A DNA stretch of 64,000 nt, from contig JBIOWE010000004.1 of the NCBI GenBank assembly GCA_044868145.1, positions 333,860 through 397,859 on the forward strand, read 5' to 3'. Source of the stretch: Patescibacteria group bacterium. Lineage in GTDB: Bacteria > Patescibacteriota > Patescibacteriia > UBA10025 > JBIOWE01. This document shows positions 7,027-64,000 of this stretch, one piece after another. How positions within the stretch are numbered: position 1 is the first letter of the stretch; every line of letters starts with the position of its first letter. The notes beneath the pieces are model-generated. The model saw only the letters and a list, made by a program, of their open reading frames with translations. It was not told where the DNA came from and did no database searches. Both the position numbers and the translations under genes were made by a program.

Positions 7027-7218
7027 ATGAGCTTATTGCCAAACTCTGATGAGTTGCAAATCTTGCACAGCTGCGGCACCCTGGTAACGGTCCGCATTGA
7101 AGGAACGTTTGCAGGACCAATGGCCATGCCCGAGAAGTGTCCAAAATGCGGTAAGCCAGTGCAAGACGAGCGAATTAGTGATGCGTTGATCGCGTATGCC
7201 AGCAAGCATATACACTAA
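7027..7218 (+). CDS. small Cys-containing (CPKCGK) protein, zinc-ribbon-like
   Basis: 63 aa with a strong SD (AAGGAGG, 6 nt spacing), an upstream promoter and a downstream hairpin terminator at 7236-7274. Confidence 0.45.
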   Translation: MSLLPNSDELQILHSCGTLVTVRIEGTFAGPMAMPEKCPKCGKPVQDERISDALIAYASKHIH

Positions 7219-7235
7219 AAAGCATACGTGAAAAC

Positions 7236-7274
7236 AAAAAAGAGAGCGTCTTATGAAGAGCGCTCTCTGATTTT
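7236..7274. terminator. bidirectional hairpin terminator
   Basis: gagagcg-tcttatgaaga-cgctctc, with an A-run upstream and a T-run downstream. Confidence 0.5.
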
Positions 7275-7290
7275 TATTAAAGCTCCGGTG

Positions 7291-7600
7291 TTACACCGGC
7301 GCCAGTAGTTCACCGGCCTTTTCCCGAATCATTCCTTCAATTTTTCCCTTGAAGAAACTAACAAGAAAAGGTAGCTTACCTGAGACATCGATTGTCGTCG
7401 GTGTCACGCTGATACTCCCTGTTATATCATAGCCTTGTGCCGTAAACTGGAATTCCGCGGAATTTCCGTTCCATAATTCCGATGCCCCGCTGATGTATTC
7501 CGCGTACTGCTCCTTAAGCTTGGGCAGCAGCTGTTGAATGCGCCTTACTGCTTCTTCCTGCCCCCAGGGTATGGGGAATAGAAATGAACATTGAACCCAT
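7291..7600 (-). pseudogene. PHA-granule-region-like (PHA_gran_rgn/TIGR02610-like) small protein with an apparent +1 frameshift in a G5 run; or a sequencing error
   Basis: The ATG at 7600 (or 7591) follows AAAAGGAGGA and reads M(GS)MFISIPHTLG, then shifts frame at ctggggg (the + strand ccccc run at 7561-7565). It continues in the ORF-track frame as QEEAVRRIQQLLPKLKEQYAEY...WNGNSAEFQFTAQGYDITGSISVTPTTIDVSGKLPFLVSFFKGKIEGMIREK. A TTGACA-16-TATACT promoter lies at 7635-7662 on the - strand. Confidence 0.5.
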
Positions 7601-7757
7601 CGAGCATCCTCCTTTTGTTTTATTTTGAAACGGTAGTATACGGTAAATGAAGATTTTGTCAAGCGCTGATTGACAAAAAAGCTCCTATTACTATACAATA
7701 AAGGCGATATATTAATAAAAAGCCTTCCCAAAAGCTATTTGTGGAAGGTTTTTGTTT

Positions 7758-8351
7758 ATGGCGCATTTGCCAAAATTCAACATTTTCGGTCACGCACATT
7801 TTGTAACGACCAATACACATCATCGCAGGCATATTTTCCGTAATGAGAAATGTTGTGAAATTTTGATATCCGAGATTAATTTCTATCGCAACAAGTTAAG
7901 GTTCAAATTAATCGGATACTGTATTATGCTAGATCATTTGCACATGATAATTTGGTGGGATCCGGGGACCGTACCGCATTTAGTGGTCTCAGCAATTATG
8001 CATCGTATCAAAAACCATTCCGCCCGCTCGATCATCGATTCTGTATATCACACGGGTGGGCAAGGTCCCTTGACCTTGCCGCCGCGTGTGCGCCTGGGTC
8101 AAGGGACCCAGGCTACCCGAGCGGAATATCCACACAAGAGAATGAGCAGACAACAATATCAGGTATGGCAACCCTCTTTCTATGACTTTAATATTTATTC
8201 AGAGGATATGCTACATCAAAAATTAGATTATATTCACCTGAATCCTGTCCGTGCCGGGCTTGTGCGCGATCCTGTTGACTGGAAATATTCCTCTGCCCGA
8301 AATTACTATCTAGGAGACGAGTCAATGTTAAAGATTGATCGACTATTATAA
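7758..8351 (+). CDS. REP-associated tyrosine transposase (RAYT; IS200/IS605-like Y1 HuH transposase)
   Basis: About 197 aa with N-terminal GHAHFVTTNTHHRRHIF, the HuH motif DHLHMII and C-terminal LDYIHLNPVRAGLVRDPVDWKYSS, which is characteristic of RAYTs. A GGAAGG RBS sits 8 nt upstream of the ATG at 7758. GTAG-initiated palindromic REP-like repeats occur elsewhere in the window. Confidence 0.75.
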   Translation: MAHLPKFNIFGHAHFVTTNTHHRRHIFRNEKCCEILISEINFYRNKLRFKLIGYCIMLDHLHMIIWWDPGTVPHLVVSAIMHRIKNHSARSIIDSVYHTGGQGPLTLPPRVRLGQGTQATRAEYPHKRMSRQQYQVWQPSFYDFNIYSEDMLHQKLDYIHLNPVRAGLVRDPVDWKYSSARNYYLGDESMLKIDRLL

Positions 8352-8355
8352 GCAT

Positions 8356-9879
8356 ATGTCTTCAAAAATTCTGACAGCGGCAATTGTCGGTCTTGACGCG
8401 CAAGTTGTGGAGGTCGAGGCGGATCTGACGTTCGGCTTGCCGCGCATGTTTATCGTGGGCTTGCCCGACGCCGCGGTTCAGGAGGCTAAGGAGCGCGTAC
8501 GGTCCGCGCTGAAAAACAGCGGCAATGAATTTCCGCGCGGCAATGTTACGGTAAATCTTGCGCCTGCGGATTTAAAAAAAGAAGGCCCGGCCTACGACCT
8601 ACCCATCGCGCTCGCGATTCTCGCGGCGCAAGGAGTCGTGCCGGCGTCTGCAAGCGAGCGTCGCCAGTTGTTTGTGGGTGAACTCGCGCTTGACGGAACG
8701 ATTCGCGGGGTGCGCGGCGTTCTTTCTATTATGCTTATGGCGCGTGAGCTGGGCGTTCGCGATCTTTTTCTGCCCGCGGAAAATGCCGAGGAGGCGAGCA
8801 TTATTCCTGGTGTAAAGATTTTCGCGGTTGACCATCTCCGGCTGTTAATACAACACCTGCGCGGCAAACGACAACTTGCGCCGTATCGCCATCATGGTGA
8901 AACACGGCAAGCGCCGAAGCAAGAGTACGCAATGGACATGGTGTACGTGCGCGGCCAGGAACATGCGAAGCGCGCCCTCGAAATCGCCGCGGCCGGCGGT
9001 CATAACCTGCTTATGACGGGTCCTCCGGGCTCGGGAAAAACAATGCTCGCGAAAGCGCTCAGGACGATTTTACCGCCGCTCACGTTGGAAGAATCGCTCG
9101 ACGTAACCCGTATTTATTCGGTTGCCGGACTTTTACCCAAACGTCAGCCCCTGTGGCGCGACCGACCGTTTCGCTCGCCGCATCATACGGCGTCATCCGT
9201 GGCGATTGTCGGCGGTGGCTCATGGCCAAAGCCCGGTGAAATATCGCTGGCGCATCGAGGTGTGCTGTTTCTGGACGAATTCCCGGAATTCCAGCGACAG
9301 GTTCTGGAAAGTTTGCGTCAGCCGCTCGAGGAAGGCGTTGTGGTTATCTCGCGCGTGGCAAACACCCTGCAATTTCCGAGCCGGTTCATTCTCGTGGCAG
9401 CGCAAAACCCCTGCCCATGCGGGTTTAGGACCGACCCTAGCCGTCAATGTACCTGCAGTGCGGCTGAAATTGTGAAATATCGAAAAAAAATATCCGGGCC
9501 ATTGCTTGACCGCATTGACCTGCACGTTGAAGTACCTCGCGTTCCCTATGAAAAGCTTACTTCGGCTGTTGCGGGCGAATCGTCAAGTGTTTTTCGCGAC
9601 CGTGTGGCAAAGGCCCGCGATGTGCAATCGGCTCGCTTCCGCGGCGCGAATATACAAACGAACGCCGAAATGCCGATTGCGGTGATGAAGGACTATTGTC
9701 GCCCTGATACTAAAGGCGCAGAATTGTTGCGACAAGCTATGACATCATTGAATCTCTCCGCGCGGTCGTATCAACGCATACTCAAAGTGAGTCGGACCAT
9801 AGCGGACCTTGCCGGATCGGAATCCGTAACCGCCACTCATATAGCGGAGGCATTGCAGTATAGGGAAAAAAGTCAGTAG
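8356..9879 (+). CDS. comM: YifB/ComM-family Mg-chelatase-like AAA+ ATPase
   Basis: About 507 aa with an N-terminal Lon-like domain (AAIVGLDAQVVEVEADL), Walker A GPPGSGKT and a C-terminal Mg-chelatase ChlI-like region. Confidence 0.85.
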   Translation: MSSKILTAAIVGLDAQVVEVEADLTFGLPRMFIVGLPDAAVQEAKERVRSALKNSGNEFPRGNVTVNLAPADLKKEGPAYDLPIALAILAAQGVVPASASERRQLFVGELALDGTIRGVRGVLSIMLMARELGVRDLFLPAENAEEASIIPGVKIFAVDHLRLLIQHLRGKRQLAPYRHHGETRQAPKQEYAMDMVYVRGQEHAKRALEIAAAGGHNLLMTGPPGSGKTMLAKALRTILPPLTLEESLDVTRIYSVAGLLPKRQPLWRDRPFRSPHHTASSVAIVGGGSWPKPGEISLAHRGVLFLDEFPEFQRQVLESLRQPLEEGVVVISRVANTLQFPSRFILVAAQNPCPCGFRTDPSRQCTCSAAEIVKYRKKISGPLLDRIDLHVEVPRVPYEKLTSAVAGESSSVFRDRVAKARDVQSARFRGANIQTNAEMPIAVMKDYCRPDTKGAELLRQAMTSLNLSARSYQRILKVSRTIADLAGSESVTATHIAEALQYREKSQ

Positions 9880-9924
9880 ATTCAAAATTCGAAGCTCGAA
9901 ATACAAAATTCGAAACAAATTCAA

Positions 9925-10290
9925 ATGACCAAATTGCAAAATCCAAAACTATTCGACCTAGAACAGCGCACTCTATTGTTTGCAAAAAACGTGCGATTCT
10001 TTTTCGAGAAATTACCAAGAACCATCATGAACATTGAAGATGGGCGGCAGCTTATACGGTCCTCGGGTTCAATTGGCGCAAACTATATTGAAGCCAATGA
10101 GTCACTAAGCAAAAAAGATTTTCTCATGAGAATAAAAATATGTCGGAAAGAATCAAAGGAATGCAGGTTCTGGCTTCAGCTTTTTGATTTGAGGGGCCAA
10201 ACCAACCTTGAACGGGAGAGGGCTTTGTTCATCCAAGAATCTACCGAATTAATGATGATCTTTGGTTCTATCATACGAAAGTTAGAATAG
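9925..10290 (+). CDS. four-helix-bundle protein (TIGR02436; 23S rRNA intervening-sequence protein family), copy 1
   Basis: 121 aa. FDLEQRTLLFAKNVRFFFEKLPR...QLIRSSGSIGANYIEANESLSKKDFLMRIKICRKESKECRFWLQL matches the family signature. It is flanked by AAATTCGAA / TTCGGATTT short inverted repeats. Confidence 0.75.
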   Translation: MTKLQNPKLFDLEQRTLLFAKNVRFFFEKLPRTIMNIEDGRQLIRSSGSIGANYIEANESLSKKDFLMRIKICRKESKECRFWLQLFDLRGQTNLERERALFIQESTELMMIFGSIIRKLE

Positions 10291-10378
10291 GTTTTGGTCA
10301 TTGGGATTTTAGAAAATTCTTATTGTTTCGGATTTCGATATTCGGATTTCGGATTTATCCTCGATGGGTTTTTACGCC

Positions 10379-10951
10379 TTACTGGACGATGACCGTCCCG
10401 ACTCGTGAGGGGTTTAGATGGTCATGGTACGAGTAGGTGCCGGCTTGAGCGAACGTGAAGGAGTATCGTTCGCCCGGGCCAATGTTGCCTGTGCCGTCGT
10501 CATCCCAGATGCCCCGGTAGCGCAGGTGCGAGGGATGAAAGTCGGGCGCCACGTACACAGCGCTCGATCCGCTATTTGTCCAGGTCACTGTCCCGCCAAC
10601 GCCTATGGTTACCGACGCCGGCGAAAAACCTGACGATGAAACAGACACCGAGGCACTTTGCGCCAACGCCGATACGTTTGTATTGGTGTTCACGGTCGGC
10701 GCTGTGTTAACATTTTTATTTTGATTGATAGTGGTAACAGTATTCACGTTTTTATTTTGATTGACGGTGCTGTTCGTCATTGTTATGTTTGTGTTAAGCG
10801 CAGTACCGTTGATACTAACCATGCTGTTTATCGACGTATTTGTCGTATTAACATTTACTTCGGGTGGTCTTTTTGAAGATAGGTAGAAGCCTCCGCCGAT
10901 GATCAGCGCGATGGCGGCAATGATTCCTATCCATAGTAATGGTTTATTCAT
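10379..10951 (-). CDS. membrane-anchored secreted protein with Asn/Thr-rich repeats and a C-terminal cupredoxin-like domain
   Basis: Signal-anchor MNKPLLWIGIIAAIALII, TVNQNKNVNT repeats, and C-terminal GGTVTWTNSGSSAVYVAPD...GERYSFTFAQAGTYSYHDHLNPSRVGTVIVQ, a plastocyanin/amicyanin-like fold that apparently lacks the Cu-ligand Cys. Confidence 0.45.
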   Translation of the reverse strand: MNKPLLWIGIIAAIALIIGGGFYLSSKRPPEVNVNTTNTSINSMVSINGTALNTNITMTNSTVNQNKNVNTVTTINQNKNVNTAPTVNTNTNVSALAQSASVSVSSSGFSPASVTIGVGGTVTWTNSGSSAVYVAPDFHPSHLRYRGIWDDDGTGNIGPGERYSFTFAQAGTYSYHDHLNPSRVGTVIVQ

Positions 10952-13659: not shown

Positions 13660-15111
13660 TTAGAGGTAGCTCAACGGATTCACCGGTCTGTTGTTGATGC
13701 GCACTTCAAAGTGAACATGTGTGCCTGTGCACCAACCAGTGCATCCCATCATCGCGAGTACTTGGCCACGAGATACTCGCTGCCCCGCCCGCACAAAGAT
13801 TTTGCTGGCGTGCGCGTACAAGGTTTTCATGTTGCCACCATGATTGACGATAACATTGAGTCCGTAGCCGCGGCCTGCGTTGTTCACCGATTCCACAATG
13901 CCGTCGCTCGCCGCGTAGATGGGCGAAGAGTAGTCGCCGTCAATATCAATTCCGGTGTGGCCGTAGCGGAAATATTGGTTAATGCGATGCGATGGGGTTG
14001 GCCAGAGCAATCTACCGGACGAGGTCACCCGCGCAGGCGGCGGAATATTTTGGTACGCGTACCGCGATGGCGTATACGTATTTGTTGACTTTGGCGCTTC
14101 CGGCATTGTTCCACCAGGGATAAGTAGAATTTGTCCTTTCTCGATTGCGGTTGCGTCGGCAAGGCGATTGTATTCAATGACCTCGTCAGCGCTCACGCTA
14201 TACTTTTGGGCAATTTTTGCAACCGTATCGCCGGACTGTACTTGATGGGATAACCCCGAGGCGGGCAGAATGGTTAGCTTGTCTCCCGGTCGAATATAGT
14301 CACGACTCCCGAGCCGGTTTTCCCAGAGAACGGTGTTTCCGCTTATGTGGAATTTTTCCGCTATGGTCGAGATTGTGTCGCCGGGCTCGACGTAATAATA
14401 CACAACACGGCTGCGCGGGGATTGATCGTCCGGCTCAATGAGGCCGCTCGAAACAACAGCGCCCGACACCTGCGACGTAATAACGGTCGGTTCGATAGCT
14501 TCGGCAACTTCGCCGACCACTGGCTCTTTGTTCGCGGCGGCAGCCGATTGTATCGGCTCTCGTATTGGTGCTTTAGCCGCCGATGTATCCTCAGTGAGTT
14601 GTTCAAGCGAATTATTGATAAATGTGTTAACCAGGCTGCGCTTGCCAAAATCTTCCGCACGGACTTCCCGGGCCAATACATTGTTAGAAAGCACAATGAT
14701 TCCCAAAAGAAAGACCACAATATGAATTGCTGTATTGCGCGTAAAGGGGAATGATATCGTGCTTTTTGCGGGTAGCAATTTTTTCATCATCCAGACCTTC
14801 ACGATGCGGTAGACACGGTAAAGCCGAACCAGAATATGCCGGAAGATGAAATCAGCCACAATGGTGATTGGGCGGACGATTACTAGCAGTAAGAAAAAGC
14901 CTACAGCGCGCACGCCGTAGGAAAGGAGCCGTAGGACTCCAACGGAAAGCTGAATAATGAATTTTTTGATGTGGATACGAATAGGTTGACCTCTTGTAAG
15001 TGTGTTTTTTCTTACGAGTCGCTTCGCATGATGTTTTTCCCTTGCCAGAGCGCCCTTTGCATGCTTACAGAAGTCAAGGTATAGACTACCATATTGTGAA
15101 AATACCGTCAA
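13660..15111 (-). CDS. M23 family peptidase with two LysM domains
   Basis: LysM1 is YYVEPGDTISTIAEKFHISGNTVLWENRL and LysM2 is HQVQSGDTVAKIAQKYSVSADEVIEYNRL. The C-terminal M23 region is GHTGIDIDG...GNMKTLYAHASK...GTHVHFEV. The N-terminus has two TM segments. The true start is uncertain; the internal MMKK at about 14790 is possible. Confidence 0.8.
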   Translation of the reverse strand: MTVFSQYGSLYLDFCKHAKGALAREKHHAKRLVRKNTLTRGQPIRIHIKKFIIQLSVGVLRLLSYGVRAVGFFLLLVIVRPITIVADFIFRHILVRLYRVYRIVKVWMMKKLLPAKSTISFPFTRNTAIHIVVFLLGIIVLSNNVLAREVRAEDFGKRSLVNTFINNSLEQLTEDTSAAKAPIREPIQSAAAANKEPVVGEVAEAIEPTVITSQVSGAVVSSGLIEPDDQSPRSRVVYYYVEPGDTISTIAEKFHISGNTVLWENRLGSRDYIRPGDKLTILPASGLSHQVQSGDTVAKIAQKYSVSADEVIEYNRLADATAIEKGQILLIPGGTMPEAPKSTNTYTPSRYAYQNIPPPARVTSSGRLLWPTPSHRINQYFRYGHTGIDIDGDYSSPIYAASDGIVESVNNAGRGYGLNVIVNHGGNMKTLYAHASKIFVRAGQRVSRGQVLAMMGCTGWCTGTHVHFEVRINNRPVNPLSYL

Positions 15112-19449: not shown

Positions 19450-19476
19450 GTAGGTCGGGGCCAGGCCCCGACCTAC
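19450..19476. repeat. REP-like palindrome, copy 1 (GTAGGTCGGGGCCAGGCCCCGACCTAC)
   Basis: Perfect 12-bp arms around AGG with GTAG...CTAC termini, the form associated with RAYT transposases. It lies intergenic between the MFS gene and rsmA. Confidence 0.65.
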
Positions 19477-19491
19477 CGGGGTATTTTCGGT

Positions 19492-20346
19492 ATGACTATC
19501 GCATTAGAACAAACAATAAAAAATCTCAAGGCAGAGTATCGTTTTAGACCATCGCGATCATCCGGACAAAATTTTTTAATTGATGCCGAAACGCTTCAGG
19601 TCATGGTGCGTTCGGCAGATCTTCATCCTGATGACGTCATTTTGGAAATTGGCGCGGGGTTCGGCACGCTTACGTTTGAACTTGCGAAACGTGCGTCGCG
19701 CATGATTGCCGTTGAACTTGACCGTCGGCTCGCTGCGGCGCTTGCCACGGAAGTACAAAAACGGTCAGCCGCCAATATCGAGGTGATACCCGGTGATATT
19801 TTTTCACGATGGCGCGAATTGCATAAAACGGTCCACGACCTCGGTTACAAAATCGTGGCAAATCTTCCATACAATATCACCTCGCGCGTTCTTGGCGAGT
19901 TCGTCAGCATAAAACCCCGACCGTCCTCTATGACGGTTATGGTTCAGAAAGAAGTTGCCGAGAGAGTTGTTGCTGCGCCGGGCAAAACAAGCGTGTTGTC
20001 TATTGTCTGCCAATTGTACGGAGAACCGAGGATTGCGTCTACCGTGCCCGCTTCGCATTTTTGGCCCCAGCCCTCGGTCGATTCCGCCATACTGCATATC
20101 GCACAGATCGGTCTGCGCCATTCAAAGGTCCTGGGAGCGATTCCGGAAAGGAAATTTTTCCAAATCGTACGGATTGGGTTTGCCGCCCGGCGTAAACAAC
20201 TGCAAAACAATCTTGCAAACGGTTTCCGCGCTTCCCGTGACCGAGCAAAGGAATGGCTGCGCTTGGCGAATCTTTCCGAGACTGTTCGTGCGCAAGATTT
20301 GTCAGTGCAGGACTGGACTAAACTGGCCAAAATCATTGCCAAGTAG
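19492..20346 (+). CDS. rsmA: 16S rRNA (adenine1518/1519-N6)-dimethyltransferase
   Basis: 284 aa with GQNFLID, SAM-binding EIGAGFGTLT and NLPYNITS. Confidence 0.9.
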   Translation: MTIALEQTIKNLKAEYRFRPSRSSGQNFLIDAETLQVMVRSADLHPDDVILEIGAGFGTLTFELAKRASRMIAVELDRRLAAALATEVQKRSAANIEVIPGDIFSRWRELHKTVHDLGYKIVANLPYNITSRVLGEFVSIKPRPSSMTVMVQKEVAERVVAAPGKTSVLSIVCQLYGEPRIASTVPASHFWPQPSVDSAILHIAQIGLRHSKVLGAIPERKFFQIVRIGFAARRKQLQNNLANGFRASRDRAKEWLRLANLSETVRAQDLSVQDWTKLAKIIAK

Positions 20347-20369
20347 GTCGGTGCCAGGCTCCAACCTGC
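20343..20369. repeat. REP-like palindrome, copy 2 (degenerate: GTAGGTCGGTGCCAGGCTCCAACCTGC)
   Basis: The 5' arm matches copy 1; the 3' arm carries substitutions. Its GTAG overlaps the rsmA TAG stop. Confidence 0.5.
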
Positions 20370-47371: not shown

Positions 47372-47446
47372 TGCGCTCGGGAGGATTTGAACCTCCGGCC
47401 TCCAGATCCGCAATCTGGCGTTCTATCCGGGCTGAACTACGAGCGC
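47372..47446 (-). tRNA. tRNA-Arg (anticodon GCG)
   Basis: The minus strand folds as a canonical cloverleaf: GCGCTCG TA GTTC AGCCCGGATA GAAC G CCAGA TTGCGGA TCTGG AGGCC GGAGG TTCAAAT CCTCC CGAGCGC A. It has a 7-bp acceptor, 5-bp anticodon stem and 7-nt loop with GCG at positions 34-36. Confidence 0.75.
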
Positions 47447-48165: not shown

Positions 48166-48255
48166 TGGCGGAGAGAGAGGGATTCGAACCCCCGATGGCT
48201 TTGCAGCCATAGCGGTTTTCAAGACCGCCCCATTCAACCACTCTGGCATCTCTCC
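48166..48255 (-). tRNA. tRNA-Ser (anticodon TGA)
   Basis: 90-nt class II tRNA on the minus strand: GGAGAGATGCCAGAGTGGTTGAATGGGGCGGTCTTGAAAACCGC + long variable arm TATGGCTGCAAAGCCATC + GGGGGTTCGAATCCCTCTCTCTCCGCCA. CCA is encoded. Confidence 0.85.
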
Positions 48256-48262
48256 CTATGGG

Positions 48263-48357
<95 letters not shown>

Positions 48358-56048: not shown

Positions 56049-56528
56049 TTATTTGATATTGATAAGATAAATAAGATCCGCGTCGACGACAAGTTGTGCA
56101 TTTGCATTTTTCGACGACTGGACGATAACCGTATTGCCGTTATGCAGGTCCGCTTTCTGTACTTCGGTTGTTTGTGAATAAAACGCGTCCGTGTTGGTCC
56201 TCTTGTTTGTCGTATTGATGCGTACGATCCTTGTTGCGTTCGTTATGTTGACCGTAAATGAATAGGAAGTTCGCTTGGCAGTGGATGGATCGGTTACCTG
56301 CACTTTCACGGCTAACGCGTTATCGTTCACGTCGGTAATTTCTCCGCGCCATTGGTACATGGGTTGCTGCGTTTGCTGCGACGCTATGTAAGATTCTATG
56401 GTTTTAACCGTTTGTTCTTCATTCTTTTGCGATCGAATTTCAGTCAGAAGCAGCACAACGACCAAAGCGGCAAAGGTAATGAGGATCGTAATCTCCAATA
56501 AAAATTTTTTATTTTCTTTTCTTGACAT
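56049..56528 (-). CDS. hypothetical membrane-anchored protein
   Basis: About 160 aa from the ATG at 56528 (MSRKENKKFLLEITILITFAALVVVLL). Its start codon overlaps the -35 of the divergent promoter. Confidence 0.4.
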   Translation of the reverse strand: MSRKENKKFLLEITILITFAALVVVLLLTEIRSQKNEEQTVKTIESYIASQQTQQPMYQWRGEITDVNDNALAVKVQVTDPSTAKRTSYSFTVNITNATRIVRINTTNKRTNTDAFYSQTTEVQKADLHNGNTVIVQSSKNANAQLVVDADLIYLINIK

Positions 56529-56550
56529 TTTCAAGAAATCTTGGTACAAT
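56522..56550 (+). promoter_or_regulatory. near-consensus sigma70 promoter (TTGACA-17-TACAAT) for the first YVTN-propeller paralog
   Basis: ttgaca at 56522-56527, a 17-nt spacer, and tacaat at 56545-56550. Confidence 0.55.
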
Positions 56551-56637
56551 GAATCAGTACGAAAAACGGTTTCATGAGTTGATTATCACGTATTTTCGTG
56601 ATTCTGTCAATTTATTTACCATTTTAAAACAAACAGA

Positions 56638-59600
56638 AGTGCGGGAGAGACGAACAAAAGAAAAAACTGTATCAGCATGGGTGCGTGTTTCTCTCTTTTC
56701 TTCTTTTTTGATTGCCATAATCGTTTTCTTTTCAAGCGCTGGAGTCTCCGCGTTAATTCAAGAGCCAACCGACGTACCACCCGGAGACAACCTCTCCGGT
56801 TTTCTTGATGTTGGGCCATTGAGTCAGGCAAAGCGGGGCGCGCTTCGCCTCGGAAGCAACGTAACGTCCAGCACACAGCTTGATGTCAACGGGTCAGGGT
56901 ACCTCAATGCGCTGACCGTCGATCAGAATCTCACCGTGAATGGCAATACGCTTTTTGTTGACTCGCAAAATAATCGGATTGGACTTGGGACGTTGACGCC
57001 TGCGTATACGCTTGACGTCCTCGGGGGTGGCGTGAGCGTTACGACGCCAGTTTCCGGTGCATGGGGAGTCGCCGTCTGGAGCAGTGACCATGATGCTAGC
57101 TATGGAAAAGGCGCTTCTGGAATCCAAGCGACAAACAATCATGGTGACGGTTCCGGCGTGTGGGGATCGAGTGCATCCACATATGGTTTGTTTGGCGAAA
57201 GTACGAATGGTTCCGGCGTTATTGGTCGCGTAACAGGACTAGCCGGCGGATACGGCGTCTACGCGATGAATGCAAACGTCACAACAGGTTGGGCAGGATA
57301 TTTTACGGGACGTCTTTTTTCATCGAACGACGTGATTGGCCGCAGATTTTTGCCGGAACAATTGCAATCGTCGCTTGTGCCATTCGCGCAAGGCCAGGAA
57401 CTTTCCACGCGGAGCACGTATAATTTATACAAACCGCGCGATCTGGCATTCGACGGAACAAACATCTGGGTGTTGCGCGATCAATTCAGCGGCGAAGTTT
57501 CCAAAGTCCGTCCTGAAGACGGTTTGAAGCTTTCCGACGTTTTGCTTGATGATCCCCAAGGCCGCGAGCCAACGCGATTGATTTACGCCGCGAACTACCT
57601 TTGGACGTCGAATAAAAGCGGCACGAATGTGACGCGTATTGACCCTGCGACAAGCACGCAAACGCATTTTTCAACTGTACCGATTGGTGTCAACTGCGCT
57701 GATCTCACCCAATCGGAGGGTACGTATTATGTTGGTTGTAACCCGACTGCGCTGGTGTATGACAGCGCCACTGCGGGCGGCCCATATGTGTGGGTGTCGA
57801 GTTATACTGACCCGCAGCCGTCTAACGGTACGCTTGGCACGAGCAGTATTGTTCGCATCCGCTTGTCCGACGGAGTGCGCACAGGATTCCTTTTGCAAAA
57901 TTCGGGCAGCGTCCTCGGGGTGAATCCCGTGGCCATTGCGTTTGACGGAACAAATATTTGGACAGTCAATTTTGGCATTCACGGAAGTATCGGTACGCCA
58001 AATGCTCCTGTCACCTTGGCTGACAGCGTTACCAAGTTCCAGGCATCGGACGGTGCGTTCCTCGGGACGTTTTCGCTCGGTACGTGCAACTACCCCATTG
58101 ATATCGTTTACGAAAATGTAGGCAGTCGCCTGTGGGTAGTCTGCAATCAAATGCGTTCATGGGAGAATAATGTGATTCGTTTTAATCCATCTTCGAATGC
58201 CGCGGACGGGGCGTTTTTGTCTGGTGGAGATTATCCCAACCGCATTGCCGTGGACAGCATTACCTCGACCGGTCCGTATGTCTGGGTAACGCATCTCCAA
58301 GGCGTCTCGCGACTCAAAGCATCCGACGGATCTGTTGTGGGACCTTTTACAACGGGCGCAAGTCCCGGCGGGATGACCACGGAGAAAACGTACACGCAAG
58401 GTGCGACAACGTATACGTATCTCTGGACCGCCGATAATCTGTCCTATCAACTTTCCAAGTTCAAGTCGAGCGATGGTGTGCTACAAGGCAATTTTGTGAT
58501 CGAGGGAACCGAGGTCGCAGGAATGACTTTTGACGGAACATACGTATGGACCGCGAACAAAAATTCACGCACGGTCTTTAAAATACGCGTGGCTGACGGC
58601 CAACGGGTTGGCGCCTATACGCTGAATGCGCCGAGCCCACGCCAAGTGTTGTACGACGGTCAAAACGTTTGGGTAACACATTTTTACAGTTATACGCAAA
58701 CGTCAATTTCAAAATTGCGCGCGAGTGATGGCACATTACTCTTTGAAAAAGTATTGACACAAGCGCATGCTGATCCGAAAGGTATGTTCCTTGATACGGT
58801 TACGTCCGGTGGACCGTATGTATGGATCCTCGTGGCAGGTTGGGGTATTCCGAATGAAAGCCATCTTATCCGCTACAAAATTTCCGACAATAGCGAAACA
58901 CGTTTCAACCTGGGTCTCAATACCGCATTGAACCCCCAAGCGCCCGCAAGTATGGTATATGACGGGCAATATCTTTGGATAAGCGCATTCTATGATCCGG
59001 ATCCCAATACCATCAATACCGCGGGCGAGACGTCGAGCCTCGTTCGGGTAGATATTCAGAGTTGTTCAGGCTCATGCTCGATCTTCATAACAACTCCTCC
59101 GTCAGGCCATTACTTACCTCTCGGTATTGCATACGACGGTAAATATCTTTGGACCGCTAATTCTGGGGTAGGCAGCGTGAGTAAGTGGAATCCTAACGGC
59201 GATGGCACCGTAACAGAAATCGCTAATTATCCTGTGAATGTGGATACGTCGGCTGGCCAGCCAGTAGACAACCCGCGCCAAGTTGTTTTTGACGGAACGT
59301 TTGTGTGGGTGGGACTCACGAAGCGAATAGACACGAACAATTATCTTTCCATTCTCCGAGCATCCGACGGAGCAGTTGTTAAAAACAATATCCAGTATGC
59401 GAGCTACGTTTCGCCCGCGAGTTTTGCGTTCGATGGAAGTTTTGTCTGGCTCGGCGGGGATTATTTGAAGGGACTGTACAAATTTTACTCTGGTGCTGGA
59501 TATGGTAAAGAAATTATCGAAGGGGTGGTCCGCCTGCAGAACAGCGTACCGGGTGAATTGGACACTGGCAATATCAATGTGAGCGGAATAGGGACAATTG

Positions 59601-59782
59601 GCGGAAACGCGATTGTGGGCGCAAACGTCATCGCTTCGAGCAACGCATGGGGAGGCGCATCAGATACGCTTGTCAATGTCGCTGGACAAGGGACATATAA
59701 CTGTCCCGACGGTTATTTCGTTAAAGATATTGTGGTGGACGGGAGCAATAACCCGACGCAATTAAAATGCAGGCCATTGTAA
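56638..59782 (+). CDS. secreted tail-fibre-like / YVTN-type beta-propeller repeat protein, paralog 1
   Basis: Up to 1086 aa. The start is uncertain: the GTG at 56638 gives MRERRTKEK + hydrophobic signal-anchor, and the ORF-track start lies inside the promoter. It has an N-terminal Gly-rich repeat region (QLDVNGSGYLNALTVDQNLTVNGNTLFVDSQNNRIGLGT...), at least 9 repeats of the motif [AV]FDG[TSQK]x[IVL]W[VT], and the C-terminal tail CPDGYFVKDIVVDGSNNPTQLKCRPL. Confidence 0.6.
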
Positions 59783-59795
59783 TAACCATATCATG

Positions 59796-59822
59796 GTAGG
59801 TCGGGGCCAGGCTCCGACCTAC
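59796..59822. repeat. REP-like palindrome, copy 3 (GTAGGTCGGGGCCAGGCTCCGACCTAC)
   Basis: Near-identical to copy 1. It sits just upstream of paralog 2, and the ORF-track ATG at 59793 immediately abuts its GTAG. Confidence 0.65.
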
Positions 59823-59834
59823 GAAGTCACTGAA

Positions 59835-61838
59835 ATGCAAAAACGAATGAGACAAATGAAAGCTGTATACGCAAAACCCCTTGTTATTATGGGTATGGCT
59901 TCGGTCATAATCGGAATGTCGTTTATTTTACACGCGACGCAAGCCGCGTGGGTTGACCCCGGATCTCCTGCGCCGCAGGACAACATTTATCAGCTTATTA
60001 ATATTGGTTCAACTGATCAGGTACGACAAGGTAAACTGCTTCTCAGCCGAGATTATAAACCGGAAGAGACGTTAACGCTGAGCTACCCGCTTGAAGTTGT
60101 CGGACAGCCGCTTGCCACGGGGTTTAACGTGTCTGGTCTGCTTACCCTGGACGGAAATTTGATCGTTGACACAAACACACTGTATGTAGACAGCACGAGC
60201 AACCTCATCGGCATAGGCCTTGCTCCTGACCCTGCCTACAAGCTGACTATTACAGGTGGTGGAAACGGATTGCGCATCGGCGGCGGTTCAGGGGTCGCTG
60301 GTCCAGCATTGAACGTGAGCGCAGTTGGCAACAGTGCGATTTACGCAAAATCACTTGGGTCAACAGCGACGTACGCAGCGATCTTTGGCGAAGGTGTCAC
60401 GGGCGATGGAATCAACGGAATCAATAACTATGCAGGTGCAGTAACAACAAATATCCCCGCGGGCGCGCGAGGAGCCAACACTGGTGCCAGCCCTGGAGCG
60501 CCGGGAGTTCTTGGGACGACTGCAAGCGCAACTGGCGCAAGCGTGCGTGGTGAACTAACGGATCTAATGAACATCAACGGTTGGGCAGGCTATTTTGCCG
60601 GACGCGTGCGCGCGTCGTCGGACGTCGTTGGTAATAAATTTATTCCATCCGCGTTCCAACAATCCGTGCTTCCATATATCACCGATTATTCGCTGGGGGA
60701 TTACGCTGCGAGCACTTCCCCGTCTAGCCTTGCGTTCGATGGCAGTTCCGTTTGGGTGGCGAACGCTGGCTCGACGAACGTTTCCAAAATCCGCGCTTCA
60801 GACGGAAAAAAGATATTCGACGTGAATATGGGCTTTACCCCGCTCGACGTTGTGTTCGATGGCCAAAATGTCTGGGTATCGTATAACAACAGCGGTGGAA
60901 AATTGGCAAAGCTGAACCCGCAAGATGGTTCTATCGCACTGACGATTGATACCTCGCCGCGGTCGGACCTTCAAAATCTGCTCATTACGTTCGATGGAAC
61001 GCTGAAATATATTTGGGCAGCGTCGTCGAGCGGGAATGAGGTGCGACGGTATGCCGTTGATGGCAGCAGTCTCTGCTCGTATGGCACTAATCTCTCAAAT
61101 CCTCAAGGACTCGCCTACGATGGTACAAACATTTGGATAGCAAGTAGAAGCAACAATACGGTGCACCGCATTCAATCCAGTTGTGCGGTAAGCAATTTTC
61201 TCTCCGGCTCGAATCAAGTCGCCGTGAATGCGCCGAACAGACTCCTGTTCGACAACACGAATATGTGGGTGGTGAGTGACGCTGCGTCGGGAACGGGCAA
61301 CGTTACACGGATTTCATCGAGTGGCGCCACGACGTCTCACTCCACTGCGGTTGCAAGCGCGTTTGACTTGTCGTTCGACGGATCATTTGTCTGGATTACG
61401 CACAACAGCGGCACGATCGTTCGAATGAGCGCTCAAACGGGCCAGGCCGTCAAAACGTTCGATGCGAATGGCGCGTCCGCAAACAATGGCCGAGGTATTG
61501 TCTATGATGGCACATACATGTGGATTGGCTATGACGCTGGAACGACAATTTCAAAATACGTCACAGGAACCGGCTGGTCGCAGCCCGACCTTGCTGGCTA
61601 TCTTTTTTTGCAAAACGTTAGTCCATTTATTACGCAAACCGGCAGCTTCAATATCTCCGGCACTAGTGTTATCGGCACCTCACTGACTGTCGCGGGCAAT
61701 CTCGATGCGACGGCTAATACTTGGAATGGGATCGATGCAACACCTGCGCCGGGCAGCGGGTGTTTGAATGGACAATTCGTTAAAGGATTTACGTTGACGG
61801 GCTCTGGAATTGTGAATTTGATATGTAGACCATTATAA
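59835..61838 (+). CDS. secreted tail-fibre-like / YVTN-type beta-propeller repeat protein, paralog 2
   Basis: About 667 aa from MQKRMRQMKAVYAKPLVIMGMASVIIGMSF (signal-anchor). It has a Gly-rich N-region, FDG..VW repeats (LAFDGSSVWVAN, VVFDGQNVWVSY, LAYDGTNIWIAS, LSFDGSFVWITH, IVYDGTYMWIGY) and the tail CLNGQFVKGFTLTGSGIVNLICRPL. Confidence 0.6.
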   Translation: MQKRMRQMKAVYAKPLVIMGMASVIIGMSFILHATQAAWVDPGSPAPQDNIYQLINIGSTDQVRQGKLLLSRDYKPEETLTLSYPLEVVGQPLATGFNVSGLLTLDGNLIVDTNTLYVDSTSNLIGIGLAPDPAYKLTITGGGNGLRIGGGSGVAGPALNVSAVGNSAIYAKSLGSTATYAAIFGEGVTGDGINGINNYAGAVTTNIPAGARGANTGASPGAPGVLGTTASATGASVRGELTDLMNINGWAGYFAGRVRASSDVVGNKFIPSAFQQSVLPYITDYSLGDYAASTSPSSLAFDGSSVWVANAGSTNVSKIRASDGKKIFDVNMGFTPLDVVFDGQNVWVSYNNSGGKLAKLNPQDGSIALTIDTSPRSDLQNLLITFDGTLKYIWAASSSGNEVRRYAVDGSSLCSYGTNLSNPQGLAYDGTNIWIASRSNNTVHRIQSSCAVSNFLSGSNQVAVNAPNRLLFDNTNMWVVSDAASGTGNVTRISSSGATTSHSTAVASAFDLSFDGSFVWITHNSGTIVRMSAQTGQAVKTFDANGASANNGRGIVYDGTYMWIGYDAGTTISKYVTGTGWSQPDLAGYLFLQNVSPFITQTGSFNISGTSVIGTSLTVAGNLDATANTWNGIDATPAPGSGCLNGQFVKGFTLTGSGIVNLICRPL

Positions 61839-61844
61839 ATATTG

Positions 61845-61873
61845 ACCTTGGTCAGGGCGAGGCCCTGACCTAC
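61845..61873. repeat. REP-like palindrome, copy 4 (variant: GGTCAGGGCGAGGCCCTGACCTAC)
   Basis: Perfect 9-bp arms with a CTAC 3' end, sharing the GCC..GACCTAC architecture. It sits just upstream of paralog 3. Confidence 0.5.
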
Positions 61874-61885
61874 GAGCGTGCTGAA

Positions 61886-63844
61886 ATGAAAAATCGAAAG
61901 CAACAACAGAAAAGAATAAAGAAATTTGCAGTTGTCTGCTTCATGTTTAGCGTTGTCGCAATTGTGTTGTTATTTGGATTCGGCATTGCCCGCGGTCAAT
62001 GGCAAGAGCCGACGGTCCCGCCGCCCGGATCAAATGTATCAGCGCCGATCAGTGTTGACGATCTAGTGGAAGCGAAGCAAGGCGGGCTGCTCATTGACCC
62101 AACGTATGTACTGGGAAGCGCCTTCTCATTACGTGGTGGTTCAAAGCTCGATGTCCGTGGCGAGGTGAAAGTTACGGGCACCTCCGCGGAGGTCGGTGGC
62201 GGCCTACAGATAGACAATTCGAGCGACGATTCTCTTGTTGTCTCGGGTACGCAAGTAGGTATTGGCACGGATGCGTTCGGTGTGGGGTACAAACTGACCG
62301 TAAATGGCGGCGGCATTGGCATTGGTTCGGAGGCGACGCCAGTGAGTAGTGACGGCGTGTATGCCTACAGCAATAATAACTGGGGGATTATCGCCGCCAG
62401 TACGGATGCTTCGGGCCGGGGCGCGGCATACGGCGAATATGCAGCCGGGTACGGCGTGCACGGCAAGAGTACTGCCGGCGCTGGCGTTATGGGTCAGTCC
62501 GCGGTGGGTTACGGCGTGTATGCGCACACAGCAAACGGCGGCACAACGTTACTCGGCGTGAATACGCTCACCGCCGGCAATTTCTGGGCGGGATATTTCG
62601 TGGGCAAACTCGGCGCAAGCGATGAAGTCGTTGGCGCGAAATTTTTGCCGACAAAATTGCAAAACTCACTCGTGCCGTACACGGTTGGTTGGCGGCAAAC
62701 ATTTACAACGGCCGTCGATGGTCCCGCGAACCTCGCGTTTGACGGCACGTACATCTGGGCCGCGAACGTGAACAGCACGACGGTTTCGAAGATTCGCGCG
62801 AGCGACGGGGTGAAAGTAACGGACGTGACCATTGGCAATGGAGTTCTTGACGTGGTGTTTGACGGAAGTTTTGTCTGGGTGTCTCGCTCCGGCGCATCGA
62901 ACCAGTTGGCAAAAGTTAATCCGTGGACTAATGCGATCGTCGCAACCTATGGCATTGACGCGAATGCGGCGAATCTACTTGTAACATCAGAAGGTGCGAA
63001 CACGTTTATCTGGTACGCGTCTACGTCAACGAATGCGGTACGCAAGTTGAACGCGAACGGCGTGCTGCAATGTTCGGCATCCGGACTCTCAACGCCGCGC
63101 GGGCTCGCGTACGACGGGATAAATGTGTGGGTTGCGAACAACGGAGCAAACAATGTTCTACGCATAAACTCAACATGCGGCAGTGTGGGCTCGTCTGTCG
63201 CTGTGACCGCACCGTTCAGACTCGCCTTTGACGGTTCTTACATGTGGGCGACAACGCGCAACGCCAGCTCGACAAACAACGTTACGAAAATATACGGCGC
63301 TGATGGCGTGATTGCGGGAACGTATTCAACGGGCGTGGCCCAGGCGAATGATTTAGCGTTCGACGGAACATTCTTCTGGGTGACGCACGATACCGCGGTT
63401 GTACGCATAGGCGCTGGCGACGGAACCGTGTATCCGGCGTTGACCAACCCGGGCGGTAACGCGTCAGGGGTCGTGTTCGACGGCACATACGCGTGGGTCG
63501 GGAAAGGATCAGGTAATGCGGTTGATCGCTATTACTCTGGCTCTGGCTGGGGTCATACCGACCCTTCAAGCATGGTCCAACTGCAAAGCTCGACGCCAGG
63601 CACTGCTCAAATCGGAGGATTCGCCATCACAGGGTCGGCCACGCTTGGCGGAAGCTTACAAGTCAACACAGGCGATCTGTCCGTGACCGGCAATACCTGG
63701 GGTGGGACAGCTGATCAATCAACTAGCGTTTCCGGAAATTCAGGAACAAATTCCTATAATTGCTCAACGAACGGATATTTCGTGAAAGGCATTGAGGTGA
63801 ACGCGTTCGGGCAAATCGTCAACTTTTTCTGTAGGCCACTATGA
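61886..63844 (+). CDS. secreted tail-fibre-like / YVTN-type beta-propeller repeat protein, paralog 3
   Basis: 652 aa with MKNRKQQQKRIKKFAVVCFMFSVVAIVLLFGF (signal-anchor), a Gly-rich N-region, FDG..W repeats (LAFDGTYIWAAN, VVFDGSFVWVSR, LAYDGINVWVAN, LAFDGSYMWATT, LAFDGTFFWVTH, VVFDGTYAWVGK) and the tail CSTNGYFVKGIEVNAFGQIVNFFCRPL. Confidence 0.6.
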   Translation: MKNRKQQQKRIKKFAVVCFMFSVVAIVLLFGFGIARGQWQEPTVPPPGSNVSAPISVDDLVEAKQGGLLIDPTYVLGSAFSLRGGSKLDVRGEVKVTGTSAEVGGGLQIDNSSDDSLVVSGTQVGIGTDAFGVGYKLTVNGGGIGIGSEATPVSSDGVYAYSNNNWGIIAASTDASGRGAAYGEYAAGYGVHGKSTAGAGVMGQSAVGYGVYAHTANGGTTLLGVNTLTAGNFWAGYFVGKLGASDEVVGAKFLPTKLQNSLVPYTVGWRQTFTTAVDGPANLAFDGTYIWAANVNSTTVSKIRASDGVKVTDVTIGNGVLDVVFDGSFVWVSRSGASNQLAKVNPWTNAIVATYGIDANAANLLVTSEGANTFIWYASTSTNAVRKLNANGVLQCSASGLSTPRGLAYDGINVWVANNGANNVLRINSTCGSVGSSVAVTAPFRLAFDGSYMWATTRNASSTNNVTKIYGADGVIAGTYSTGVAQANDLAFDGTFFWVTHDTAVVRIGAGDGTVYPALTNPGGNASGVVFDGTYAWVGKGSGNAVDRYYSGSGWGHTDPSSMVQLQSSTPGTAQIGGFAITGSATLGGSLQVNTGDLSVTGNTWGGTADQSTSVSGNSGTNSYNCSTNGYFVKGIEVNAFGQIVNFFCRPL

Positions 63845-64000
63845 AGAAAAATTTTTACCGAGCTTCAGCTCAGGGTGCAAGAATTATGGCTTTAGCCATT
63901 ACGAAGCATGCTCAATAAGATAAATCCATATTGGCCAAATAATACTACCTATTTCTTAACTGGCTCTACCTTCCTCCACTATCCTTATTTTAAAGAAGAT

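Follow-up and report, generated by a model that had tools for sequence, protein, structure and literature searches.

We analysed a 64,000-nt stretch of the chromosome of a Patescibacteria group bacterium (contig JBIOWE010000004.1, positions 333,860 to 397,859; hereafter the window, whose numbering is used unless another locus is named). It carries an intact gene for a REP-associated tyrosine transposase (RAYT; REP, repetitive extragenic palindrome), a pair of inverted REP-type hairpins lying in frame inside the open reading frame (ORF) of that gene, and four further palindromes dispersed elsewhere. An initial annotation, made from the letters alone, had proposed that the gene is a RAYT residing in a streamlined genome together with its cognate REPs. 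The gene and the hairpins that it contains are the following:

7758..8351, + strand: RAYT ORF, 197 aa, intact (ATG at 7758, TAA at 8349-8351; NF047646, Pfam Y1_Tnp, AF2 model and fold match)
7935..7943, + strand: HUH motif H60-L61-H62 (read off the sequence; H60 and H62 invariant in the homologue alignment)
8229..8231, + strand: putative catalytic Tyr158 in LDYIHLNPV (aligned with VDYIYINPV of TnpAREP 4er8; near-invariant in the homologue alignment)
8053..8119, no strand assigned: REP doublet, REPIN-like, in frame inside the RAYT ORF and encoding aa 99-121 (inverted repeat, perfect hairpins, covariation)
8056..8082, + strand: left REP unit GTGG-GCAAGGTC-CCTT-GACCTTGC-C (covariance model R1, 36.4 bits)
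8090..8116, - strand: right REP unit GTAG-CCTGGGTC-CCTT-GACCCAGG-C (covariance model R1, 39.3 bits)

The assignment of the ORF to the RAYTs, rather than to the TnpA transposases of IS200-type insertion sequences (IS), is borne out by profile searches, alignment and fold. Its product scores 110.3 bits against NF047646, the curated RAYT equivalog model of NCBI (cut-off 80), and fails the transpos_IS200 model (28.6 bits, cut-off 55), while in Pfam it matches the generic Y1_Tnp family alone (35.6 bits). The HUH motif initially noticed as DHLHMII occupies residues 59-65, and the RAYT-specific C-terminal block, YI..NPV..G.V....W.[YF]S, is likewise present: residues 156-179 (LDYIHLNPVRAGLVRDPVDWKYSS) align with the catalytic-helix region of the E. 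coli TnpAREP structure 4er8, and the block aligns with 4er8 residues 92-137. This structure is the sole significant sequence match among solved structures (phmmer), the alignment covering the WQP strand, the Tyr helix and the C-terminal block. It also comes first in the fold search: an AlphaFold (AF2) model computed from 17 homologues (mean predicted local distance difference test score, pLDDT, 81.6; core above 90) has 4er8_A as its best PDB match (Foldseek, E = 1e-8, TM 0.73, target-normalised), with the TnpAs of ISDra2, IS608 and IS200 ranking below. ORF 7758-8351 is therefore a RAYT and not an IS transposase, and its product is a putative domesticated Y1 HUH single-strand DNA endonuclease encoded in a Patescibacteria chromosome.

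A library-wide search puts the broader family at 7,604 representatives with E <= 1e-3, a number that drops to 27 with E <= 1e-30. Those homologues of the RAYT that bear a name, as well as the best named homologues of its neighbour ComM, come from Patescibacteria, Kerfeldbacteria, Buchananbacteria and Kuenenbacteria, in agreement with a streamlined host of the Candidate Phyla Radiation (CPR). Note that the presence of a RAYT in CPR/Patescibacteria is not new by itself, because several CPR homologues are already annotated as RAYT in NCBI or JGI records.

What distinguishes this RAYT is a GC-rich inverted repeat in its ORF, which is made up of two perfect hairpins that are inverted relative to each other; their stems are 8 bp long, with GT[AG]G heads at the foot. 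The heads read GGGT(A/G)G, inverted, at both ends of the element, and the spacer is variable (11-14 nt). Segment 8053-8119 thus has the anatomy of a REP doublet, or REPIN (REP doublet forming hairpins). The two units of one gene have a common loop sequence, which indicates concerted evolution. The amino acids that the doublet encodes belong to a segment (99-132) of pLDDT below 50 in the AlphaFold model, a predicted disordered surface loop between a helix (77-96) and a strand (142-146); as RNA, the doublet has a predicted folding energy of -46.2 kcal/mol (z = -5.4). Classical REPs or REPINs flanking the gene, envisaged by the initial annotation, are not what the locus contains: no REP-type unit lies in the RAYT flanks, the closest dispersed palindrome is at 19450, 11 kb off, and the units are inside the ORF. 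Neither in the window nor in the loci of homologues (about 20 kb each) does the doublet form the replicating population with many extragenic copies that characterizes REPINs, and no second doublet copy was found in those homologous loci. Note that hairpins returned by a relaxed GT[AG]G scan (one mismatch) are no commoner than in shuffled sequences, whereas perfect-stem or covariance-model scans are specific.

Homologous gene DNA was retrieved from independent assemblies (loci L010, L013, L018, L020, L021, L023/L024, L025, L026 and L027). Every retrieved gene carries a doublet at the same place (63-67 nt, including 3 nt past each head), and in nearly all of these loci its hairpins are the only GT[AG]G-headed perfect ones in about 20 kb. 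The left units read as follows:

L010, L013, L018 and L021: GCGAGGTC-CCTT
window: GCAAGGTC-CCTT
L020: ACGAGGTC-CCTT
L026: GCGAAAGC-CCTC
L027: GCAAGGC-TTTTAT
L023: TCGAGGC-GTTTCT
L025: GTCGGAGCA-TC

Stems and loops vary from gene to gene, yet pairing is kept: 97.3% of the cells of the 10-gene alignment hold standard pairs, as against 82.5% after column shuffling and 24-45% when the partners are slid. Two-sided changes are seen in 13 of the 16 hairpin pairs, a number reached in none of 500 shuffles, and all eight pairs of the left hairpin covary. In the window, one stem pair has changed by G>A together with C>T, and each of the two substitutions replaces an amino acid (R>Q, S>L). The left head lies in codon phase 1 in all ten aligned genes, and the right head is in a different frame in two of them. 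When the window gene is compared with the five genes having the same CCTT-loop stems, identity at third codon positions amounts to 77-87% in the doublet versus 37-47% outside it. The GC content of the doublet is 54-69%, as compared to 28-45% elsewhere in the same genes, and the encoded proteins are only 44-63% identical. Taken together, the covariation, the conservation of third codon positions and the phases of the heads show that selection acts on the nucleic-acid structure of the doublet rather than on the peptide that it encodes.

Two other descriptions of this segment were discarded. The loop peptide GRRGPLTSP...GQGTQATR was rejected as a protein motif on account of the non-synonymous compensated stem changes, the differing reading frame of the right head and the predicted disorder. 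The GGGTAG/CTACCC 'outer helix' is unsupported as a real helix: it shows zero two-sided changes and amounts to inverted conserved heads.

Hairpins of other kinds are found in the same loop of relatives. The RAYT homologue of L009 (7372-8049), whose N-terminus is about 85% identical to that of P0011, holds three different hairpins in frame (7745-7863), with GGGTAC heads, a CTCA loop and stems of 8-10 bp that differ from one another but are each paired, in - + - orientation. Variable loops interrupt many relatives, and repeated peptide arrays occur in some of these loops, which suggests that ORF-embedded REP arrays may be more general; the L009 gene confirms one further case at the DNA level. 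Five distant representatives of 230-270 aa (P0312, P0352, P0320, P0443 and P0350) contain two- to three-fold peptide repeats, e.g. SRRQEPPLLSEKRIEQGLYS x3 and KRLGDGFTPSPIQADG x3, in modules that border the central helix on both sides; these repeats, known from the proteins alone, look like translated arrays.

The second set of hairpins is dispersed over the window, the initial annotation having listed at least four palindromes that start with GTAG. We found four 27-nt loci, two near-perfect and two degenerate:

19450..19476, no strand assigned: palindrome copy 1, GTAGGTCGGGGCCAGGCCCCGACCTAC, perfect, 13-bp arms, 3 nt past a stop codon (RNA, -27.3 kcal/mol)
20343..20369, + strand: palindrome copy 2, degenerate, 4 mismatches (covariance model, 16.8 bits, E = 0.07)
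59796..59822, no strand assigned: palindrome copy 3, 1 mismatch, 13 nt past a stop codon
61847..61873, - strand: palindrome copy 4, 5 mismatches, single GTAG head, compensated G>A/C>T stem change

No such GTAGGTCGGGGCCAGGCCCCGACCTAC locus is expected in shuffled sequences, and when the entire window was scanned with a covariance model, filters off, the only hits were the four palindromes and the two units embedded in the RAYT gene. The dispersed copies consist of GTAG and stems of 8-9 bp (13-bp arms when the heads are counted). All four lie 0-13 nt past a stop codon on the + strand; when related contigs are included, 11 out of 11 dispersed copies lie 0-30 nt past a stop codon, between unidirectional or convergent genes and in no case between divergent ones, a distribution that upholds their description as REP-like. 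As RNA they form strong hairpins (-18 to -27 kcal/mol) without a T tract. The window therefore holds a small GTAG-REP family, with four copies in 64 kb; known families of this type comprise about 20 to thousands of units per genome. Copies 3 and 4 have paralogous surroundings, each following the 'CRPL*' end of one of the tandem surface-protein paralogues. A scan for near-exact 27-mers hit one Patescibacteria contig among 185,579 species genomes, and seven contigs of two JGI metagenomes; all outside contigs with the 27-mer have a GC content of 34-41%.

The palindromes were set aside as intrinsic terminators, since the T tract is absent after the hairpins; a terminator scan covering 7200-10400 lists none of them. 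The GTAG head of copy 2 supplies the TAG stop (20343-20346) of an rsmA/ksgA-like ORF (19492-20346). Another symmetric palindrome, GTTGGCGAGACGTCGACGTCTCGCCAAC, with a GTTG head, occurs in two identical copies in L003 (1092-1120 and 4069-4097), one of which is 60 nt from a variant of the 27-mer in the same intergenic region.

The embedded and dispersed hairpins are connected through relatives of the window RAYT. In a sister subfamily (P0035/P0036, 40% identical), the exact 27-nt palindrome lies in the same loop, in frame, where it is read RSGPGPDL. The P0035/P0036-type RAYT passes NF047646 with 126.6 bits, and its gene stands directly 5' of comM and a histidine kinase gene, like the window RAYT. 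The embedded left unit of L025 is GTAG-GTCGGAGCA, and the stem of this unit, GTCGGAGC, differs by one compensated base pair from that of the dispersed palindromes of the window, GTCGGGGC. In an alignment mixing embedded and dispersed units, 98.8% of the cells are paired, 8 of 9 pairs covary and the G-C closing pair that follows the head is invariant. The covariance model R1, built from this mixed alignment, finds a few additional units in related loci, among them the L018 unit described below.

Further hairpins were noticed in two of these loci. L025 has a symmetric GTAG palindrome, GGGTAGGCTGGCCGACGTCGGCCAGCCTACCC (9867-9894), 106 nt 5' of its RAYT gene (10001-10594); the contig has a GC content of 55%, carries pyrimidine and PLP (pyridoxal phosphate) biosynthesis genes, with the RAYT gene between pyrC and carB, and is possibly non-CPR. 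In L018, a contig that also carries a RAYT gene with an embedded doublet, a GGGTAG-headed unit with one mismatch, GACAGATC-CCCT-GACCTGTC (13949-13977, - strand), lies in frame inside a Lactamase_B/comEC-like gene and encodes QDRSGDLSYPQ.

The RAYT gene is flanked by a divergently transcribed polyhydroxyalkanoate-granule gene and by comM/yifB, the start of which is 4 nt past the RAYT stop; RAYT and comM are probably co-transcribed:

8356..9879, + strand: comM/yifB, Mg-chelatase-like AAA+ ATPase (gene call, Pfam domains; homologues named YifB)

The absence of flanking IS-type inverted repeats, stated initially, was confirmed: neither inverted repeats nor terminal hairpins were found around the RAYT gene. 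Nor is there a tnpB-like ORF adjoining it among the ORFs and gene calls, and the arrangement initially named as pointing to an IS200/IS605 TnpA, with an adjacent TnpB and IS ends, was thus looked for with neither part being found. All 108 collected homologues map to a single place in the window, the RAYT gene, which is the one gene of its clade within the 64 kb. The order RAYT-comM-HisKA is found in the window, L015 and L016, RAYT-comEC in L010 and L018, and mgsA/rarA-RAYT-EamA in L020, L023, L026 and L027, the last group containing four different hairpin variants. Closely packed among housekeeping genes, with intergenic flanks that hardly exist, the gene keeps its context within sublineages, a pattern that fits vertical descent with hairpins evolving in place and not repeated insertion.

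Upstream of the gene, the following signals were predicted:

7670..7699, + strand: sigma-70-like promoter TTGACA-18-TACAAT, 11/12, upstream of RAYT (consensus scan alone)
7662-7635, - strand: divergent sigma-70-like promoter, 11/12 (consensus scan alone)
7718..7751, + strand: predicted hairpin of the 5' untranslated region (5'-UTR) holding a Shine-Dalgarno (SD)-like GGAAGG, then a T run (-22.9 kcal/mol, z = -3.9)

RAYT thus appears to have its own promoter. As to the 'good' ribosome-binding site attributed to it, there is indeed an SD-like GGAAGG about 10 nt 5' of the ATG, but this motif makes up the 3' arm of the predicted 7718-7751 hairpin. The hairpin, which is bordered by A and T runs and would sequester the SD-like motif, may be an attenuator.

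We consider it likely that the locus represents an intact, domesticated RAYT gene with an in-frame, structure-conserved doublet, and that the dispersed palindromes are REPs of the same class. By analogy with E. coli TnpAREP, the enzyme would bind single-stranded DNA hairpins with a 5' GTAG at their foot, and would cut and rejoin DNA by means of Tyr158 and a metal ion bound by the HUH motif. The doublet would constitute a heritable cis-acting site for the enzyme, be it a bound substrate, a master copy inseparable from the gene or, at the DNA or mRNA level, a self-limiting regulatory hairpin. The dispersed 27-nt palindromes would belong to this structural class of REPs as well; a RAYT of the same family probably spread them, to sites where they could also be used as mRNA 3' hairpins. 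A more specific proposal, that this RAYT lineage, found mostly in Patescibacteria, has internalised its recognition hairpins as a master copy and/or as a cis autoregulatory operator, maintained in working order by compensatory changes, is offered tentatively, as we hold it to be possible and somewhat doubtful. If it is true, the gene would form a REPIN-RAYT unit complete in itself, well fitted to genomes in which intergenic space is all but absent, and would be the first transposase-family enzyme with a DNA substrate inside its own coding sequence.

Several observations weigh against the explanation favoured here. The stems and loop of the embedded units differ from those of the four dispersed palindromes, and no further copy of the embedded doublet was found in the 64-kb window. 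According to the covariance scan, most 20-kb loci of homologous RAYTs contain zero dispersed REPs. Copies 3 and 4 may correspond to one insertion that was duplicated along with a paralogous gene, and a second Y1-like gene, at 63908, stands 2-4 kb from two of the palindromes. Binding and cleavage by the RAYT are extrapolated from E. coli TnpAREP (PMC3479197). Finally, the covariation is that of maintained hairpins and does not distinguish between the DNA and the mRNA level, or between purposes. The cognate relation between the window RAYT and the four palindromes is accordingly plausible but unproven, because the 27-mer belongs to the sister subfamily, the RAYT's own units differ and there is a second Y1-like gene. 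Of the initial model of a RAYT with its cognate REPs, the RAYT and the GTAG REPs are real; the cognate part is weakened by the mismatch of the stems and by the 27-mer being embedded in the P0035/P0036 subfamily. The RAYT closest to a REP family is not necessarily its partner.

The strongest alternative is that the dispersed palindromes are served by another Y1 enzyme, either a P0035/P0036-type one encoded outside the window or the product of the gene at 63908, or that they are immobile relics which by now act only as mRNA 3' hairpins. The gene in question is cut by the end of the window:

63908..64000, + strand: 5' part of a second, divergent Y1_Tnp-like gene, truncated where the window ends (translation MLNKINPYWPNNTTYFLTGSTFLHYPYFKED)

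It comes after the tandem surface-protein paralogues separated by palindrome copies 3 and 4, beginning 2 kb from copy 4. Of the 31 residues available, 29 are identical to a 196-aa protein encoded by L013 (2521-3108), which scores 30.6 against Pfam Y1_Tnp (cut-off 23) and 44.5 against NF047646 (cut-off 80). The gene may be relevant to the question of which enzyme serves the palindromes, and there are zero palindromes less than 11 kb from the RAYT gene. As far as the P0035/P0036-type enzymes are concerned, the exact 27-mer is found inside their genes and is absent from the window RAYT gene, the metagenomes with dispersed 27-mers also have genes of this type (Ga0180007, with L003-L005, L008 and L007; Ga0315289, with L009 and L006), and one 42-kb contig appears to hold a P0036-type and a window-type RAYT together. 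On the other hand, the slot 5' of comM is occupied by P0035 in L015/L016 and by the window RAYT in the window; embedded and dispersed units have the same geometry, GTAG head and invariant G-C closing pair; and cross-recognition is plausible, as E. coli TnpAREP relies mainly on GTAG and the lower stem (PMC3479197). Besides, L013 has the Y1-like paralogue yet no 27-mer in 20 kb. We rate this alternative as a serious one, with a likelihood not far short of even.

The remaining alternatives bear on the embedded doublet. The intragenic hairpins could function in the mRNA alone, as a brake on translation or RNA stability by which transposase levels are kept low, with DNA recognition by the protein playing no part. 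In favour of this are the strong predicted RNA fold of the doublet, the few G-U pairs tolerated on the sense strand and the predicted 5'-UTR hairpin, which would sequester an SD-like motif. An RNA brake, however, requires neither conserved GGGT(A/G)G heads inverted on both strands nor identity with a class of dispersed DNA palindromes, and A-C mismatches, which correspond to G-U on the opposite strand, are as frequent as G-U. We therefore regard it as unlikely.

Still less likely is a passive origin, in which the hairpins would be neutral in-frame REP insertions, comparable to intragenic GTAG REPs or Rickettsia palindromic elements, that survive thanks to a permissive loop alone and do nothing for the enzyme. 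Many genes are known to contain in-frame GTAG REPs (PMC3733652), the L018 Lactamase_B/comEC-like gene has another one, the insert encodes a loop predicted to be disordered and the content of the loop differs sharply between close relatives (e.g. L009 versus L013). But a neutral relic should decay, whereas the hairpins are perfectly paired in ten genes whose proteins have diverged to the extent given above; 13 stem pairs changed on both sides while synonymous sites were conserved, every gene has the doublet at one site with its left head in one codon phase, and the loop sequence common to both units of a gene reflects concerted evolution. An active IS200/IS605-type element with this gene as its transposase gene, a notion to which the purely generic Y1_Tnp match in Pfam and the fold common to the IS608 and ISDra2 TnpAs lend something, is extremely improbable in view of the profile scores, of the lack of tnpB, terminal hairpins and inverted repeats, of the tiny gaps to its neighbours, of its single clade copy in the window and of the synteny kept across distant genomes.

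The preferred explanation, a domesticated RAYT with a structure-conserved doublet, has its closest known counterpart in the E. coli TnpAREP (YafM)/REPtron system (4ER8; Ton-Hoang 2012, Messing 2012). Both enzymes combine a Y1 HUH domain with the RAYT C-terminal block, are chromosomal and non-IS, and are linked to hairpins with a 5' GTAG foot; binding by TnpAREP requires the 5' GTAG and the lower stem, and cleavage occurs at CT dinucleotides (PMC3479197). They differ in that the REP/BIME (bacterial interspersed mosaic element) arrays of E. coli lie in intergenic flanks whereas the window doublet is in frame inside the ORF, in the loop that joins HUH to the WQP strand, where the window RAYT has some 35-45 additional residues, and in the host, Patescibacteria instead of Proteobacteria. 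The REPIN-RAYT systems of Pseudomonas and Enterobacteria (Bertels & Rainey 2011; Bertels 2017, groups 2 and 3) likewise consist of two inverted REPs with a short variable spacer and of a RAYT that is syntenic and apparently vertical within sublineages; their RAYT is single-copy, and the window holds one clade copy in 64 kb besides the divergent Y1-like gene at 63908. However, their REPINs are extragenic, flank the RAYT gene and number tens to hundreds, whereas the window doublet is intragenic and unique in 64 kb, and the dispersed elements of the window are single symmetric palindromes with a different stem. As for the TnpAs of IS200/IS605 elements (IS608, ISDra2), the window enzyme resembles them in fold and, by analogy, would share their HUH and Tyr chemistry and the use of subterminal hairpins with a 5' guide tetranucleotide; unlike theirs, its gene lacks IS ends and tnpB and shows nothing to indicate multiple copies, and its product falls under the IS200 cut-off.

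Palindromic sequences that are translated within a host protein have precedents: the Rickettsia palindromic elements are repeats of this sort, tolerated in loops of the proteins that contain them. GTAG REPs are short stem-loops with GTAG at one end and a stem of 5-13 bp, and sit just 3' of ORFs, between unidirectional or convergent genes (Di Nocera 2013, PMC3733652); the dispersed copies of the window have both this anatomy and this location, and the embedded units have the anatomy. The intragenic GTAG/CGTC REPs described in the same study resemble the doublet in being translated within the host protein, tolerated by loops and often found in DNA-metabolism genes. They are scattered over assorted genes, however, whereas the host gene in the window is the RAYT gene itself, and the site and phase of the RAYT doublet are fixed across the clade, with compensatory evolution. 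The authors considered the effect of in-frame REPs on proteins difficult to assess, and the text of the supplementary files of PMC3733652 does not contain the word 'transposase'. A limited literature search found nothing relevant on REPs within a RAYT ORF or on RAYT biology in CPR. The embedded, covarying doublet, absent from the papers searched, is the new part; the RAYT assignment is ordinary, as annotation pipelines already recognize relatives.

The doublet touches on two questions, namely what benefit RAYTs bring to their hosts and how REPs and REPINs remain coupled to RAYTs: a structure-conserved doublet in the ORF points to a direct, selectable cis relation between enzyme and hairpins. 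It extends REP-RAYT biology to ultra-small CPR genomes and offers a compact, one-gene system for studies of binding, cleavage and autoregulation. For annotators, it means that the odd Gly/Arg/Pro-rich loops of such proteins are translated palindromes.

RAYTs of this clade repeatedly adjoin or overlap genes for the handling of single-stranded DNA (comM/yifB, comEC and mgsA/rarA), with gaps often of just 0-4 nt. These neighbours are located as follows:

window: 8356-9879
L015: 4816-6342
L010: 10588-12087
L018: 10537-12048
L020: 3076-4359
L023: 8710-9999
L027: 218-1486

The adjacency could stem from functional coupling or from mere dense gene packing in CPR genomes.

The region of copies 3 and 4 (56522-63844) consists of three tandem paralogues coding for secreted or surface proteins (1086, about 667 and 652 aa), all ending in C-R-P-L-stop, with a GTAG palindrome after the first two. 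The ORF called at 59793-61838 begins within palindrome copy 3 (MVGRGQAPTY...), so that its start is probably over-extended. Finally, an Rfam scan of the window gave no family matching the hairpins and returned only three tRNA genes:

47372-47446, - strand: tRNA gene (Rfam)
48169-48255, - strand: tRNA gene (Rfam)
48269-48357, - strand: tRNA gene (Rfam)

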